A DNA stretch of 63,516 nucleotides, filler included, from Dimargaris cristalligena (taxonomy: Eukaryota), in the NCBI GenBank assembly GCA_003614675.1. It is 15 parts of 15 records of this genome, joined end to end, with 100 filler letters (N's around TTAATTAATTAA, not from the genome) between each part and the next. Parts side by side here need not be neighbours in the genome. Positions count along the whole stretch, not along the records: positions 8,674 to 12,900 come from ML003818.1; 14 more parts are not named here. One strand, 5' to 3'. Below the pieces are notes generated by a model. It saw only the letters and a list, made by a program, of their open reading frames with translations, was not told the DNA's origin and did no database searches. Shown here piece by piece: positions 4,242-13,000 of this stretch. The position numbers and the translations under genes were made by a program. The first letter of the stretch is position 1; each line of letters opens with the position of its first letter.

Positions 4242-4341
4242 NNNNNNNNNNNNNNNNNNNNNNNNNNNNNNNNNNNNNNNNNNNNTTAATTAATTAANNN
4301 NNNNNNNNNNNNNNNNNNNNNNNNNNNNNNNNNNNNNNNNN
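4242..4341. other. Artificial contig linker (N44-TTAATTAATTAA-N44), first of 14
   Basis: Identical 100-bp spacers with stops in all frames also at 8574, 12901, 17179, 21453, 25712, 29958, 34183, 38407, 42606, 46794, 50977, 55160 and 59340. Contig lengths decrease from 4241 to 4077 bp. Confidence 0.99.
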
Positions 4342-6718: not shown

Positions 6719-7234
6719 ATGTCTAAATTATATATCGGCAACTTGTCCTGGAATACCACTGATGATACGCTCCGCCAAGCCTTTGGGGAATATGGCACGG
6801 TTACAGACTCTAAAGTTATGAGAGACCGTGAGACTGGTAAGTGTACTGACCAACAATTTAAGACGAGCCGTGATAACCCCATTTCTATTATTAATCAATT
6901 GTCAATTCGGTATATCCACACAATGTCCTATTATACCTTAAATACACACCCTCATCTTGGAATTGCGACGCTTCTTCTATCCATAGGCCGCAGCCGTGGG
7001 TTTGGCTTCGTAACATTTAACAGTTCTGAGGAAGCCGATGGCGCCATGGCTGCTCTCCATGAGCAGGAACTGGATGGCAGAAGAGTCAAGGTCAATAAGG
7101 TCGGTGAGCGAGACCAACAGAGCGGCGGCCAACATGCCTATAATAACCAAGGTGCAAGAGGTTATGGGAGTTACAACAGCACCAACCAAGCTGCAGGCCA
7201 TGGGGGTTATGGTGGCTACGGCCAAGCTGCATAG
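6719..7234 (+). CDS. Glycine-rich RNA-binding protein, single RRM (exons 6719-6836, 6987-7234; 121 aa)
   Basis: RNP2 LYIGNL and RNP1 RGFGFVTF. A GTAAGT..CCATAG intron at 6837-6986 restores DRETG|RSRGFGF. Gly/Tyr-rich tail. TATA at ~6557. Confidence 0.93.
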   Translation: MSKLYIGNLSWNTTDDTLRQAFGEYGTVTDSKVMRDRETGKCTDQQFKTSRDNPISIINQLSIRYIHTMSYYTLNTHPHLGIATLLLSIGRSRGFGFVTFNSSEEADGAMAALHEQELDGRRVKVNKVGERDQQSGGQHAYNNQGARGYGSYNSTNQAAGHGGYGGYGQAA

Positions 7235-8573: not shown

Positions 8574-8674
8574 NNNNNNNNNNNNNNNNNNNNNNNNNNN
8601 NNNNNNNNNNNNNNNNNTTAATTAATTAANNNNNNNNNNNNNNNNNNNNNNNNNNNNNNNNNNNNNNNNNNNNA

Positions 8675-9011: not shown

Positions 9012-9239
9012 ATGCCGGCAGACAAACTCGGCCGATTCATGACCAGCGGCACATTCCTGGAACGCGCGAACGCAGCAGTTGCCAAGGCAGTGCGTCGCCT
9101 CGAAAAGCGAGGCATCGCACCGGCTTACATCCAGCGCCAACCAAGCCAGCAATCGAAAATTGACGCTGGCCCAGGCGACAGCGCCCAAGAAGGAAGCCCA
9201 GACGTTGCTGGACAGCATGAATCTCCTCGTTCTAAGTGA
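9012..9239 (+). CDS. Small bacterial hypothetical protein (75 aa)
   Basis: GGAG RBS just upstream of ATG 9012. Amphipathic helical N-half (FLERANAAVAKAVRRLEKRGIAPAYI). Overlaps the start of the next gene. Confidence 0.6.
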   Translation: MPADKLGRFMTSGTFLERANAAVAKAVRRLEKRGIAPAYIQRQPSQQSKIDAGPGDSAQEGSPDVAGQHESPRSK

Positions 9240-9993
9240 CCTTCATCTCGAATTCTCCACCCTCGACATCGACACGACCGACGTAGATGTGGTCGTGCTT
9301 GCCGGCGACATTCATCTGGGCAAGCGCGGAATGCCTTGGATTGAAACCCAGAGCCGCGGCCTACCGGTTATCTACGTACCCGGCAACCACGAATTCTACA
9401 AAGGTGAGCACAGTCGAGTGCTTCGAGATCTGCGTGCGGCGTGCGCCGCGACGCCGAACGTCCACCTTCTCGACACGGACAAGATCACGATCGGGGACGT
9501 GGAATTCTTGGGCGCCACACTCTGGACAGACTTCGCGCTGTACGGTGGTGCAGAAGAAAAAGTGCGTGCTGCCGAGAGCTACGCTGCTCGGGGCATGACC
9601 GACTTCACCGGAGCCATTCGCTTCGAATCGCGCGGAGTGTTCAGAAAGCTGCAGCCACAGGACACAGCTCAAATGCACCACGCCGCACGCGAGTGGCTGA
9701 CCACAGAGTTGATGACCCCGTCACAATGCAGACGAGTAGTCGTCACTCATCATGCTCCATCTGCGCGCAGTGTGTCCCCGAGATTTCAAGATGACCCGCT
9801 CACGCCGGCGTATGCGAGCCACATGGATGATGTAATCAAACTCGCCGATCTGTGGATTCATGGCCATATGCACGGGAGCTCTGACTACAGCGCCGGAGCA
9901 TGTCGGGTCATCTGCAATCCGCGAGGCTATGCGCCCAAGGGGCGGAGCACAGAAAACGGCGCATTCGATCTGAGGCTGATCTTGCAGGTCTAA
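9217..9993 (+). CDS. Calcineurin-like metallophosphoesterase (258 aa)
   Basis: Complete MPP motif set: SDLH, LAGDI, PGNHEFY, THHAP, HGHMH, NPRGY. The true start is most likely ATG 9217. Confidence 0.93.
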   Translation: MNLLVLSDLHLEFSTLDIDTTDVDVVVLAGDIHLGKRGMPWIETQSRGLPVIYVPGNHEFYKGEHSRVLRDLRAACAATPNVHLLDTDKITIGDVEFLGATLWTDFALYGGAEEKVRAAESYAARGMTDFTGAIRFESRGVFRKLQPQDTAQMHHAAREWLTTELMTPSQCRRVVVTHHAPSARSVSPRFQDDPLTPAYASHMDDVIKLADLWIHGHMHGSSDYSAGACRVICNPRGYAPKGRSTENGAFDLRLILQV

Positions 9994-10028: not shown

Positions 10029-11291
10029 TCAAGAAAACAAGAAGGAGCGCTGCGACGGCAAGCGCAGAACATGATCGCTCTTCAGGCTGACGCGCGCCCT
10101 GGAGGGGGCGCCGGATTCATCGACCACGACGATCTCACCGCCTTGGTGAAGCTCTAGCAGACTGGCCTCCACCATTTCGCGAGTAGCAGGCGTTGTGTTG
10201 ATCAGCTTCAGGAAGAACTGCTCGAAGGTCATCCCCTCAGCGCCATCGAACAACATCTCGGGGATCTGTTCGAGCATGGTTTCTTTGCTCACTGCTGCCG
10301 CCACTTCGCTGAAATCAAATCCTGCCTGCAGCTTGTGCTCATCGTCGATCTTGCTGATGTAGCCCGTGCTGAACATGTGGAAGCCGGCGTCCCCATAGTG
10401 AGAGAAATGGTTGTTGTGCTGCCAGTGCGTGGAGGCCATCACATCCCGAGCTTTCCAATGCTGCGAGAGATGCAGCAACCAGAAATCTCCGTGCCCGCGC
10501 TCAGGGCGAATAAAGAACGGCGTGTAAAACTGGGCCGAGCATTGATCGGTGAGATTCTGGTAGAGCGAGGACTGGAGATGTACGCGCCAGCGTGGCGACT
10601 GCTTGATCTCATCGAGCTCGGACGCCCGCACCGATGTACTGACGCCTGTGGCCTTTTGGAAGGCCGCTAGGTTGCGCTCATTCAAGTACTTGATCAGCGC
10701 ATCAACATAAAAGGTGAGGATCACCTCGGCGTGCTTGAGCTTGGCAAAAATATCGCGCAAACAGTGCATCGGCACGTCGGAATAGCCGTACTGATCAAGA
10801 ACAAACAACGCTCGCCCTGAACGGCGGCTTCGATCATGGCACCGTTGAATGGCCGCGCCGCAATGATCGACAAATTCGCCTTTGACCAAGCGCACCTTAC
10901 CGTTGGCGAGTGCGGCTCCGTACCCGCGCTCTTCCAGCAAACGCCTAAGATAGTCCAACGACCGCATCTTGGCGTCAACGCAGATGAGTTCGACGTCGAT
11001 CAGGATCGGCTTGCGACGCTCCTGCCGAACATTCAGGAGCGTTTCGGCCTCGCGTATGGCCTCAAGAATGACAAGAGGTGAACCCGGAACTTCCTGGCCA
11101 TCCTCGTTGAGATAGAGCCCACCACCACAGAAGCCATCAACGATGGTCAGTTGGATCTTGTCCTGGTGCGGCAGCGGCACCAGCGTAAGGAAATAGTCGA
11201 TCAAGTAGTTGCGCAGGAGCGCATGCTTGACCTCGCTGTGTCGCTTAAGCAGCGGCGGCGGACTTCCCCAGACCCATGTGTAGTGTGGCAT
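10029..11291 (-). CDS. tcmP: Three-Cys-motif partner protein TcmP (SAM-methyltransferase-like fold, probable C-terminal wHTH)
   Basis: Motifs HSxxKHxLLxxYL, IVDGFCGGG..GSP and LFVLDQYGY are typical of the TIGR04474 family. It lies directly downstream of a DUF5131 gene. Confidence 0.87.
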   Translation of the reverse strand: MPHYTWVWGSPPPLLKRHSEVKHALLRNYLIDYFLTLVPLPHQDKIQLTIVDGFCGGGLYLNEDGQEVPGSPLVILEAIREAETLLNVRQERRKPILIDVELICVDAKMRSLDYLRRLLEERGYGAALANGKVRLVKGEFVDHCGAAIQRCHDRSRRSGRALFVLDQYGYSDVPMHCLRDIFAKLKHAEVILTFYVDALIKYLNERNLAAFQKATGVSTSVRASELDEIKQSPRWRVHLQSSLYQNLTDQCSAQFYTPFFIRPERGHGDFWLLHLSQHWKARDVMASTHWQHNNHFSHYGDAGFHMFSTGYISKIDDEHKLQAGFDFSEVAAAVSKETMLEQIPEMLFDGAEGMTFEQFFLKLINTTPATREMVEASLLELHQGGEIVVVDESGAPSRARVSLKSDHVLRLPSQRSFLFS

Positions 11292-11370
11292 TGAGTGGCA
11301 GCGCTCTTGTGACCCCTGCCTATCAATGTGCGCCCGCGACCTCGCAAAATCAAGTGCGCATCAATGCCTC

Positions 11371-12129
11371 TCAGGAAGATGCCATGCGCTCGATGACGGT
11401 GACGGGCATTTCGTCCCAGGTCCGGCCATTTAATTCGCGGCCGTTGGCCGCCTTCGCCCGTTTTTTTCCGTCTGCGCCCCATCCGCCCCACTGCTTGAAG
11501 AAAAAGGCGACTCCCTGCTCCTGGCATTGTGCCCGAACGGCCTCTGCCCATTCCATCTTCATTGGGCGCGCCTTCGGGCCAGACTCACCACCCACAATCA
11601 CCCAATGAATGTCCGTCAAGTTGAGCTCACCAACATCGGCCAGTAGCGGTTCAACTGATAGGAACCGGATGGTCGCGGGCACTTGGCGTAGGTAGTCGAT
11701 ACGGGGAACGCCGTACTTCCGGTCCTCGACAGAGACTCCAAGCCACGCATTCGTCGGCACTGAACGCTTCCGGAAATAGCGCGCCATCCGAGCGGCTCGT
11801 TTGGTAAGTATTTGATATGTATGGTGCGGTGTTTGTGCAATAACTTCGAATACTTTGTCGATATACGCGTCCGGCACCCGCTCGTGGAACAGATCCGACA
11901 TGGAGTTTACAAAATAAACTGTCGGCTTCTTGCGTTTGATCGGGTCGTTGAAGCGCTCAGGCAAAAGAGTGAGCGCAAAGCCGTTCTCATAGCCAGGCGT
12001 CCCCATTGCTTTCAGACGCTTGGCCATGGCCTCCGCATAGCAATGCTTGCACCCGGGCGAGATCTTGGTGCACCCGACTGTCGGGTTCCAGGTTTGCTCA
12101 GTCCACTCAATCTTGCTGATGGTTGTCAT
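11371..12129 (-). CDS. DUF5131 / phage Gp37-Gp68 family protein (radical-SAM-like three-Cys motif)
   Basis: IEWTEQTWNPTVGCTKISPGCKHCYAE (Cx6Cx2C), FVNSMSDLFH, QILTKR, FLSVEPLL, WVIVGGESG, FFFKQWGG, GRTWDEMP. Confidence 0.94.
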   Translation of the reverse strand: MTTISKIEWTEQTWNPTVGCTKISPGCKHCYAEAMAKRLKAMGTPGYENGFALTLLPERFNDPIKRKKPTVYFVNSMSDLFHERVPDAYIDKVFEVIAQTPHHTYQILTKRAARMARYFRKRSVPTNAWLGVSVEDRKYGVPRIDYLRQVPATIRFLSVEPLLADVGELNLTDIHWVIVGGESGPKARPMKMEWAEAVRAQCQEQGVAFFFKQWGGWGADGKKRAKAANGRELNGRTWDEMPVTVIERMASS

Positions 12130-12763
12130 CGAGATATTCCCTGTTTTTTTATCTTAGCCCCACCGGCCAACTGCGGCCTATAACTTCGGACAATCCCCCT
12201 GACGACACCGATGATGTTCAGGGTCTTCTCGGGAGTCACCGTCTTGCCGTCCATCCCGTGCGACACAAGGCGCGGCTGGCCCCGATCATTCCTGAATTCC
12301 TTGATGGTCTGGCTACCGTCGATTTCGGCCACCACGATGTCGCCAGTCAAAGCCTGCGAACTCGTCTCAACCACGGCCACGTCGCACTCAGGATCCCTAC
12401 GTTCAGCATTGAATCGCCGTGCACCTTCACCAGCACCGTCTTCGAAGGTTTCGCCATCAACAGTTGATCGAGAGCCTGCGCTTGCACAAGGCCCGTAGCG
12501 TCGCCATCCGCGCCAAAGCCTGCTCGCACTTCATCGTCGCTCAACTCCAGCGTGAAAAAGGCGGGACCTGGTGCCAAGCGCCCGCCCACAGACTTCGTCA
12601 GATGGCCGGAGGCAATCAGCCGCTGCGTCAGTTTGAAAGCTGCATTCTTCGCCTTGAAACCAAGCGCTTTGGCGATCTGGCTGTACGAGGGCACGCACCC
12701 CATCTGCGCATAGGTGTCGCGAAGTCGGCGCAAATGCGCCTGGTCATTGTTGGTTCGAGCCAT
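12126..12763 (-). pseudogene. LexA-family repressor / S24 peptidase with a single-base frameshift at ~12385
   Basis: N-terminal wHTH (PSYSQIAKALGF), Ala-Gly cleavage site (VRAGF), catalytic Ser (GDSM) in ORF 12347-12763. GDIVVA and catalytic Lys (TIKE) lie in ORF 12126-12380. Adding one G to AGT-GC-GAC restores ILSGDVAVV. The stop overlaps the DUF5131 start (ATGA). Confidence 0.87.
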
Positions 12764-12775
12764 TTCGTTATTTTG

Positions 12776-12791
12776 GTGGACAATCGTCCAC
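12776..12791. promoter_or_regulatory. Candidate operator GTGGAC-N4-GTCCAC
   Basis: Perfect 6-4-6 palindrome, 12 bp from the LexA-like start codon. Confidence 0.6.
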
Positions 12792-12799
12792 TAATCAAG

Positions 12800-12832
12800 A
12801 AAAATAATCGGACGCGGCGGTAGCCGCGCCCG
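12800..12832 (-). terminator. Probable intrinsic terminator upstream of the lexA-like promoter
   Basis: Minus strand reads CGGGCGCGGC-TACC-GCCGCGTCCG (10-bp stem, one G-U) followed by ATTATTTTT. Confidence 0.55.
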
Positions 12833-13000
12833 TCAGATCAACGAAGCAGATATAGACACCCGATCAGGAATCGAACAGGTTCAGGTTAGGACTGCGAATC
12901 NNNNNNNNNNNNNNNNNNNNNNNNNNNNNNNNNNNNNNNNNNNNTTAATTAATTAANNNNNNNNNNNNNNNNNNNNNNNNNNNNNNNNNNNNNNNNNNNN

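Follow-up and report, generated by a model that had tools for sequence, protein, structure and literature searches.

The LexA-like repressor, DUF5131 and TcmP genes of a bacterial contig in a Dimargaris cristalligena assembly, and the repeated coupling of S24 repressors to the DUF5131-TcmP pair

The cassette and its control region in the window

The cassette of interest lies in a stretch of 63,516 nucleotides (hereafter the window) from the assembly GCA_003614675.1 of the eukaryote Dimargaris cristalligena, and consists of three genes coding for a LexA-like repressor, a DUF5131 (Gp37/Gp68 family) radical-S-adenosylmethionine-like (radical-SAM-like) enzyme and a TcmP protein. All three are co-oriented on the minus strand, from 12763 to 10029. 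The repressor gene occupies 12763..12126, and its stop codon overlaps the start codon of the DUF5131 gene (11371..12129, 252 aa, PF07505 E-value 2e-112) in the tetranucleotide ATGA at 12129..12126; the tcmP gene (10029..11291, minus strand, 420 aa, TIGR04474 E-value 2e-65) follows after a gap of 79 bp (11370..11292). The co-orientation, the overlap and the spacing had all been claimed by the original prediction, together with a terminator and a palindromic operator upstream, and each of them is found in the sequence. The TcmP of the window is of the long type, with a Rossmann methyltransferase-fold domain that carries the motifs VDGFCGGG (motif I, residues 51-58) and LDQYGY, and a C-terminal winged helix-turn-helix (wHTH) domain (PF22560, residues 310-394, window 10110-10364).

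The operator appears as a perfect palindrome, GTGGAC-N4-GTCCAC (12792..12775, minus strand), which has no other exact copy in the window. The 17-nt spacer that it fills lies between a promoter-like TTGATT (12798..12793) and the hexamer CAAAAT (12775..12770), which together make up a promoter-like element read from the sequence (12770..12798, minus strand), and the ATG of the repressor gene lies 6 nt beyond CAAAAT. Such an arrangement would be the layout of an autorepressed promoter. The distance from the -10-like hexamer to the start codon is 5-7 nt, with no Shine-Dalgarno sequence, in the window as well as in eight related loci of the set described below (L002-L007, L016 and L018), which suggests that the repressor mRNA may be leaderless or near-leaderless. 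Further upstream, a hairpin of 10 pairs (9 of them G-C) with a loop of 4 (12832..12809) and a T-run with the tail ATTATTTTTC form an intrinsic-terminator-like element (12799..12832, minus strand), although the terminator scan as a whole, with 4 sites against 2.9 in shuffles, was not above chance. The hairpin is a predicted terminator for the transcript of the gene upstream, of which translation recovers the last 11 codons and the stop codon (12864..12899, minus strand), the remainder being lost at the contig end at 12900. The C-terminal ending of this truncated gene product is that of the genes of about 284 aa found upstream in L002, L003, L005, L015, L017 and L018, and marks it as a short TcmP-family paralog.

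The repressor gene of the window is split by a frameshift. Native residues 1-126 (12386..12763, minus strand) include the wHTH, the Ala81-Gly82 site and Ser118 in the sequence GDSM; a deletion of 1 base in the Gly127 codon (12384..12385, minus strand) is seen in the DNA alignment with the copy on the Ralstonia solanacearum megaplasmid (CP021449.1); and the remaining S24 domain follows in another frame (12126..12383, minus strand), with Lys in TIKEF (PF00717 E-value 4e-9, profile positions 54-115). The deletion thus puts the Ser and the Lys in different frames. It may be a genuine pseudogene lesion or an assembly error and, if it is real, the window copy is deregulated or decaying. In the intact ortholog of locus L002 the wHTH and the C-terminal S24 domain are joined, while in the window the halves stand in separate frames: residues 13-193 of the L002 protein align to residues 14-197 of Escherichia coli LexA over both domains (E-value 5e-11). 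Since this ortholog scores below the LexA equivalog cut-off of TIGR00498 (72 vs 110.95 bits), it is a LexA-like paralog and not the host LexA. The window copy is best described as an ordinary, possibly broken, member of its family of cassettes.

The contig that carries the cassette (ML003818.1, 8674..12900) is 4227 bp long with a GC content of 0.578. By protein similarity the cassette is closest to Ralstonia and other Burkholderiales, and the identity of its TcmP is 91-97% to records named Ralstonia and 70-83% to those of other named genera. We conclude that it is a stray bacterial, Ralstonia-like contig within the joined assembly, so the cassette is uninformative about the rest of the window. 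Searches with the nucleotide sequence of the whole contig gave zero matches in the phage collection and a single partial copy, broken by an insertion sequence (IS), in the plasmid collection.

Association of S24 genes with the DUF5131-TcmP pair

An alignment of 140 TcmP sequences was used to scan genomes, one per species. At least 600 stretches matched, 575 were confirmed among the matches listed, and the best 80 (L002-L081, with identities of 37-84%) were kept for comparison. DUF5131 adjoins TcmP in all 80 loci, which bears out the view of the two as a recurrent pair, and in 77 of them it lies directly upstream on the same strand; L008 and L009 have a divergent DUF5131 copy downstream on the other strand, and in L077 DUF5131 is directly downstream. 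A co-oriented Peptidase_S24 gene precedes DUF5131 in 36 of the 80 loci (33 distinct ones after three identical pairs are merged). The survey of gene order that the original prediction had proposed as its check thus reveals a conserved companion rather than a chance neighbour. The idea of a dedicated repressor as a part of the cassette holds in so far as the gene is conserved in these 36 loci and all 36 proteins keep the GxSM motif, the Lys and the upstream Ala-Gly, but it is not a universal part, none being seen in the other 44 loci. In four of the latter (L019, L063, L067 and L081) less than 900 bp of upstream DNA is available, so that the presence of an S24 gene there is undecidable; in the others, the search covered open reading frames (ORFs) of 70 aa or more whose ends lie no further than about 1.4 kb upstream, together with a phmmer run across each entire locus.

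The S24 proteins have two unrelated N-terminal heads, a LexA-type wHTH and a different conserved head of 60 aa, and fall into three forms. In clade A (15 loci and the window) a LexA-type protein has its stop overlapping the DUF5131 start. In clade A' (3 loci) a related LexA-like protein is encoded, with a short TcmP gene standing between the S24 gene and DUF5131. In clade B (18 loci) a UmuD-like S24 core is joined to the 60-aa head, and the gene ends about 37 bp before DUF5131; these proteins exceed the cut-off of the NCBIfam UmuD subfamily (133 vs 110 bits) and align to known structures with their C-terminal part only. Each form has a promoter palindrome of its own. For clade A and the window it is TTAGTG(G/T)AC-N4-GT(A/C)CACTAA, present ahead of the start codon in each of the 15 loci as well as in the window; for clade B it is GATTTCGT-C-ACGAAATC, abutting the ATG; and for clade A' the promoter has two or three copies of TAGAATG-NN-CATTCTA. 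A host SOS box was also considered as the operator of the window and rejected, as the window and clade A carry their own palindrome instead.

The three S24 forms are separate clades on the TcmP tree, which requires 4 gains or losses of the S24 gene; nearly identical cassettes occur in different bacterial families. In addition, 2 of the 41 scannable S24-less loci, against an expectation of 0.17, have a canonical CTGT-N8-ACAG box some 48 bp before DUF5131; the two loci (L069 and L075) are related to each other, and L079 has a near-box. From these sequence patterns we conclude that RecA/LexA-type control has become attached to the DUF5131-TcmP pair in at least four ways. Three acquisitions of S24 genes together with host LexA boxes, all within one TcmP family, argue for a central place of the RecA signal in the function.

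The cassette is wider than the self-contained unit of three genes that the original prediction had described, for a second TcmP-family gene occurs in 48 of the 80 loci and that of the window is cut by the contig end. In clade A it is the gene of about 284 aa upstream of the repressor, a short TcmP-family protein which lacks the wHTH and which scores above the TIGR04474 cut-off (E-value 1e-34 to 1e-38); in clade A' the short paralog, which belongs to the S24 operon, matches the PADLOC model PDC-M41A with an E-value of 1e-125 at best; and clade B has a third type, of about 395 aa, behind TcmP. The short paralog was considered as a constitutive "self-marking" methyltransferase outside the control of the repressor, which would fit clade A, and was rejected because in clade A' the gene is within the S24 operon. 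While the paralogs multiply, the identity of TcmP falls to about 40% across the loci; that of DUF5131 is 67-92% in 64 of 78 loci (the conserved type) and 38-53% in the other 14.

Some further copies are worth recording. On a plasmid of Comamonas sp. C11 (L088, NZ_CP101744.1, 6523-9005) the order S24-DUF5131-TcmP is present and tcmP is cut by an IS3 element, and on the R. solanacearum megaplasmid (L001, CP021449.1, 8000-11100) the repressor gene, the short paralog and tcmP are all cut by IS elements. Among the S24-less loci, L038 (3558-5224) and L040 (4477-5114) have, just upstream of DUF5131, an HTH-IrrE/M78 peptidase with DUF4411 or a MazE-PIN pair.

Predicted folds, fusions and genomic neighbourhoods

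The three cysteines of the DUF5131 motif Cx6Cx2C (C20, C27 and C30), which could hold a [4Fe-4S] cluster, are invariant in all 79 aligned sequences, as is G180-G181-E182 of the GGESG motif (residues 180-184). The canonical motif of radical SAM enzymes is Cx3Cx2C, of which Cx6Cx2C is a spacing variant, and the GGE motif serves SAM binding in these enzymes. A search of solved structures with the DUF5131 sequence gave chance-level matches only. Structure prediction of the two proteins had also been proposed by the original prediction. For DUF5131 the model (predicted local distance difference test, pLDDT, 86.8) is closest to spore photoproduct lyase (SPL; PDB 4k9r/4fhc, prob 1.0, template modelling (TM) score 0.51-0.53). 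The top PDB matches are the radical SAM enzymes SPL, TigE, Mmp10, NifB and LipA, all with TM scores of about 0.5, a best E-value of 1.6e-3 and none at or below 1e-3. The match agrees with the placement at RadicalSAM.org, where DUF5131 forms Megacluster-5-2 and SPL forms Megacluster-5-3, two subgroups of one megacluster (PMC9477430).

For TcmP, a search of solved structures by sequence found nothing at E-values up to 1, and the model (pLDDT 91.4) has at least 500 PDB matches at E-values up to 1e-3, the best of which is RlmJ (E-value 1e-8, TMt about 0.52). Among the matches listed, all 35 are SAM-dependent enzymes or putative ones, most of them methyltransferases, and the comparison of the predicted structure with the PDB gives a class I Rossmann-like methyltransferase fold. 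D52, F54 and G56 are invariant in the 140 TcmP sequences and in all three paralog types (motif I, D/E-x-F/G-x-G-x-G), and common features of the three types are the Lys in the N-terminal helix, DxFxG and an invariant Asp. The catalytic motif IV, (D/N/S)PP(Y/F/W), is absent: the long TcmP has DQYGY and the paralogs have DPYG, DPYS/DPYN or DPKGW in its place, and D166 is the only invariant residue of this region in the long TcmP and the paralogs. Since the motif is missing, TcmP is filed here as a methyltransferase-fold protein and not as a proven methyltransferase. Its Pfam domain name, "GMT-like wHTH" (PF22560), has no evident link to the Gamma-Mobile-Trio proteins, which are two recombinases and a StbA-like protein (10.1101/2023.03.28.534373). 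A prediction of the TcmP-DUF5131 complex, made without the alignments prepared for it, scored 0.00 and is evidence neither way.

Natural fusions give the strongest evidence for physical cooperation of DUF5131 with a methyltransferase-type, base-flipping module on DNA. DUF5131 fusions were searched among proteins of at least 442 aa at E-values up to 1e-10, which gave 1236 matches, and the best 120 of these 1236 were examined by name. Among those 120 matches listed, 34 carry the source name "three-Cys-motif partner protein", and 9 of 10 candidates scanned hold a TcmP region above the cut-off together with a DUF5131 region, in both orders. Other partners fused to DUF5131 are an HsdM-type N6_Mtase, Dam, N6_N4_Mtase and a ParB N-terminal domain with an HTH, and further ones are a HerA/TrwB-like ATPase, the Shedu SduA_C nuclease domain, an SprT-like domain and DUF3631. 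The original prediction had supposed a nucleic-acid target; folds and natural fusions together indicate joint action of the two proteins on DNA, and narrow the substrate to DNA, probably adenine. In many proteins (P0318, P0322, P0335 and others) DUF5131 is split by a LAGLIDADG-type insertion, which is intein- or homing-endonuclease-like.

The flanks of the loci with S24 genes have the character of variable DNA and are rich in two sorts of genes. Those of mobile elements comprise Tn7-like, Mu-like, Tn3, IS21 and IS1595 elements, integrases, AlpA and genes of integrative and conjugative elements (ICEs; AcaB, TopoIII and SSB); those of defence type comprise type I restriction-modification (R-M), MmeI-like, OLD-like nuclease, retron-like reverse transcriptase, PIN and WYL genes. 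In four loci (L033 2975-5926, L041 7273-10224, L046 7307-10384, and L037) an MmeI-like R-M gene of about 980-1025 aa lies between TcmP and the 395-aa paralog, so that a defence gene is embedded in the cassette itself. HMMER found 1046 TcmP clusters at E-values up to 1e-3 in a library clustered at 50% identity, and TcmP is present on 65 of 72,556 plasmids. In the IncP-7 plasmid pCAR1 (L085 3216-6227) and in a Pseudomonas aeruginosa megaplasmid (L086 3214-6296) a site-specific integrase directly precedes DUF5131-TcmP; alongside this integrase variant there is a divergent gene for a DNA-binding protein of about 330 aa, and L048 and L049 look alike. On an Acidovorax plasmid the genes for a methyltransferase, a helicase, GIY-YIG, DUF5131, TcmP, short TcmP and PIN stand in a row.

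Out of 50,697 phage records, 181 contain DUF5131 and 3 contain TcmP; one phage accounts for two of these 3. In phage Che9c, DUF5131 lies among RecT, RusA and DNA methyltransferase genes, while in Gordonia phage Easley (L084 2694-5983) the lysogeny module contains DUF5131 and a TcmP-like "methyltransferase", flanked on one side by an HTH protein with a metalloprotease and on the other by the immunity repressor. In Sinorhizobium meliloti, a TcmP gene near hna was reported to rise with hna (PMC12445080).

As to the surroundings in the window, it is made up of 15 contigs of about 4.1-4.2 kb each, ordered by falling length, with GC contents of 0.37-0.58, and between the contigs stand 100-base spacers of the form N44-TTAATTAATTAA-N44 (for example 4242-4341, 8574-8673 and 12901-13000). 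Given this spread of GC content, the window may be a mixture of several organisms. The contigs flanking that of the cassette have GC contents of 0.43 and 0.40 and are unrelated to it. In the neighbouring contig, 6719-7234 (plus strand) holds an ORF of a glycine-rich RNA-binding protein of the RNA-recognition-motif type, broken by an in-frame intron-like stretch, which suggests that this contig is eukaryotic. On the cassette contig itself, a gene for a calcineurin-like metallophosphoesterase (9079..9993, plus strand; PF00149 E-value 9e-11, phrog_1649 E-value 3e-47, and a weak match to PADLOC PDC-S10) is convergent with tcmP. It was considered as a fourth member of the cassette and rejected, a homolog being present in 1 of the 80 related loci, about 4 kb off.

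Proposed role, rival explanations and known systems

We tentatively read the cassette as a RecA-triggered, horizontally mobile pair of DNA-acting enzymes, most likely used in genetic conflict; this is the likeliest of the readings considered here, though somewhat less likely than not. Its parts differ in strength. The regulatory logic, namely an autorepressed S24 repressor that RecA filaments should inactivate, is well supported by the sequence patterns, while the damage induction and the repair, modification or defence activity of the pair belong to what we infer from them. According to this scheme, a repressor dimer would bind the palindrome in the promoter spacer, whose layout is seen in the window, and would block transcription of the lexA-like, DUF5131 and tcmP genes. 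RecA filaments on single-stranded DNA, arising from damage or from phage or plasmid replication, would then stimulate cleavage at the Ala-Gly site by the Ser-Lys dyad, all three elements being conserved, and the operon would be released. The induced DUF5131 and TcmP would act together on DNA, as fusions and folds suggest: TcmP may bind DNA through its wHTH and present a base, probably adenine, in an RlmJ-like SAM-binding pocket, and DUF5131, as an SPL-like [4Fe-4S]/SAM enzyme, might generate a 5'-deoxyadenosyl radical that takes hydrogen from the presented nucleotide, thereby modifying or damaging it. The extra TcmP paralogs would probably widen or gate the choice of target. The role of the pair, judged by its gene context, would most likely be in genetic conflict, as an attack on or a marking of replicating foreign DNA, or as an abortive response. 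What points to conflict is the candidacy of the pair in PADLOC, its embedding in restriction loci, and a fast-diverging, multiplying TcmP beside a conserved DUF5131; fusions to Shedu, HerA and methyltransferase modules point the same way, as does the fact that copies often decay through IS insertion (the Ralstonia and Comamonas copies).

A number of facts weigh on the other side. The S24 gene is not seen in 44 of the 80 loci, some of which use XRE-type regulators or an integrase instead, and the repressor gene of the window is itself broken. The fold match of DUF5131 is marginal by its E-value (1.6e-3), and TcmP is without the canonical (D/N/S)PP(Y/F) motif. Phage records with DUF5131 number 181 and those with TcmP 3, often amid recombination and replication genes. 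The unit in L047 is right behind SRAP-umuD-umuC, and the nearest full-length relative of the repressor found outside DUF5131 cassettes, at 33.9% identity, heads an imuA-imuB-dnaE2 translesion operon on a Rhodanobacter plasmid. As for prior evidence, the PADLOC candidates PDC-M30 and PDC-M41 are untested, two other PADLOC candidates (PDCs) that were tested in a native host gave no defence (PMC12409345), and literature searches by family names and identifiers (DUF5131, TcmP, PF07505, PF22560 and PDC names) found no experiment on the pair among the papers listed. SOS-type control and an SPL-like fold fit DNA repair at least as well.

Repair is indeed the alternative that survives best, though we hold it unlikely. 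According to it, DUF5131 would reverse a base lesion or cross-link by radical chemistry, like SPL, after TcmP has found and flipped the damaged nucleotide, and on mobile elements the cassette would be a cargo for damage tolerance, comparable to the umuDC or imuABC operons of plasmids. SPL is the best structural match of DUF5131 and shares Megacluster-5 with it (PMC9477430); RecA/LexA-type control was gained in at least four ways; SplB-like radical SAM genes were linked earlier to SOS neighbourhoods (PMC3765255); and the nearest outside relative of the repressor heads a translesion operon, for which lexA2-imuABC is a precedent (PMC5261740). The neighbourhoods agree in several places: in L047 (2034-4463) SRAP, a 146-aa umuD and umuC lie immediately upstream of S24-DUF5131-TcmP, with two S24 genes adjacent; an SprT-like gene is directly upstream of DUF5131 in L059 and an SprT-like domain is fused to DUF5131 in P0358; and phage copies lie amid RecT and RusA genes. 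However, a lesion sensor would require neither a conserved SAM-binding motif nor fast-diverging paralogs, the fusions with Dam, HsdM and N6_N4 methyltransferases and with the Shedu nuclease domain suggest modification or conflict rather than repair, restriction and defence loci surround the cassette, and copies are often cut by IS elements.

It is less probable still that TcmP and DUF5131 write an unusual base mark upon SOS induction, that is, a DNA (hyper)modification on behalf of a mobile element, which would shield transferred or packaged DNA from restriction, or newly synthesised host DNA from the neighbouring restriction system. Such a role would suit the fusions of DUF5131 to genuine DNA adenine methyltransferases, the position of the Che9c gene, which in a co-oriented block of early genes comes third after a DNA methyltransferase gene, the location of cassettes on plasmids, in ICE-like regions and in prophage modules, and the S24 repressors, which are of a type used by mobile elements. 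Yet most cassettes are just 3-4 genes with varied non-prophage flanks, a mark started after damage comes late for self-protection, and a modified base is known from no cassette host.

That the S24 gene is no regulator of the pair, being a leftover prophage repressor, a nearby UmuD-like translesion accessory or possibly, in clade B, a RecA-activated protein partner, is very improbable: the UmuD-level scores of the clade-B proteins with their C-terminal-only structural alignments, the umuC just upstream in L047 and the 44 of 80 loci without the gene speak for it, but the same-strand stop-start overlap or gap of about 37 bp is kept in 33 of 36 loci (the other 3 having the short TcmP gene between), clade-specific palindromes lie exactly at the S24 promoter, all clade-B proteins have the 60-aa head that UmuD lacks, no umuC follows S24 in 17 of 18 clade-B loci, L047 has a separate 146-aa umuD, and the triad is constant while the flanks vary.

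Returning to the RecA-triggered pair acting in conflict, its boldest form would be a new inducible immune or conflict system, in which RecA filaments on replicating foreign or damaged DNA destroy the repressor and fast-evolving methyltransferase-fold "readers" aim a radical-SAM enzyme at DNA bases. We consider this possible, although doubtful. If true, it would be the first defence using 5'-deoxyadenosyl-radical chemistry directly on DNA, with the same enzyme core borrowed by phages (181 records) and fused to Dam, HsdM, ParB, HerA and Shedu modules. More generally, the widespread DUF5131-TcmP pair has had a family name and a job so far unassigned, and the link to a repressor tells when its genes are on; whether the outcome is defence, oxygen-independent repair or a new DNA mark, each would add new radical-SAM chemistry on DNA.

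The claim of an undescribed system needs qualifying. In the literature searched by family names and by radical SAM and LexA-like terms, neither a link of an S24/LexA repressor to DUF5131-TcmP nor a functional study of the pair was found among the papers listed; the pair itself is already known, being named by NCBIfam and listed as a candidate by PADLOC under PDC-M30 and PDC-M41. The novelty lies in the recurrence of the S24/LexA coupling, in an architecture with several paralogs and in the fusions to methyltransferases.

Among known systems, the PADLOC models PDC-M30 (long TcmP and DUF5131) and PDC-M41 (short TcmP and DUF5131) come first, and both genes of the window match such models: TcmP matches PDC-M30A (E-value 6e-21), and DUF5131 matches PDC-M30B (E-value 2e-114) and PDC-M41B (E-value 9e-113), with the M30A- and M30B-matching genes 79 bp apart on the same strand. 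They are untested candidates, chosen for their embedding in BREX, DISARM or type I R-M loci (10.1101/2024.01.29.577857), in a preprint whose main text does not contain the designation "M30". As listed they are two-gene candidates without a repressor, whereas in the cassettes described here a single DUF5131 has both M30-type and M41-type partners and follows an S24 repressor. A further mobile radical-SAM pair of two genes is represented by NCBIfam TIGR04471, "radical SAM mobile pair protein A", which is the sole NCBIfam match of DUF5131 (E-value 1e-24 over 200 residues). DUF5131 is not a member of it (87 bits vs a cut-off of 355), and the partner family differs from TcmP.

With regard to the enzymes, the DUF5131 model finds its best structural match in SplB, a radical SAM enzyme acting on flipped-out DNA bases. 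The identity between the two is 11-12%, with 252 vs 340 residues; DUF5131 has Cx6Cx2C where SplB has Cx3Cx2C and, unlike SplB, it is always accompanied by a partner. RlmJ, the 23S rRNA m6A2030 methyltransferase of the DUF519 family and the best structural match of the TcmP model, has an identity of 11-14% to TcmP, which adds a C-terminal wHTH. TcmP keeps DxFxGxG, which resembles motif I, and an invariant Asp with aromatic residues after it; it has DQYGY (DPYG or DPKGW in paralogs) where RlmJ carries the DPPY motif, and its context and fusions point to DNA, in contrast to rRNA for RlmJ.

With regard to control, the cassette repressors have the same Ser-Lys autopeptidase domain with an Ala-Gly site as the S24 proteins LexA, phage CI-type repressors and UmuD, and they share the layout of an autoregulated operator with the S24 repressors of mobile elements and of the SOS response. 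They differ in having their own operators, not the host SOS box, and in controlling a cargo of 2-3 genes rather than a regulon or a whole prophage. A close parallel is lexA2-imuA-imuB-imuC(dnaE2), where a second, dedicated LexA-type repressor heads a small, damage-induced and horizontally spread operon (PMC5261740). The operator sequences differ between the two, and so does the cargo, which is a translesion polymerase machinery behind lexA2, and a radical-SAM-like enzyme with methyltransferase-fold proteins in the DUF5131 cassettes.

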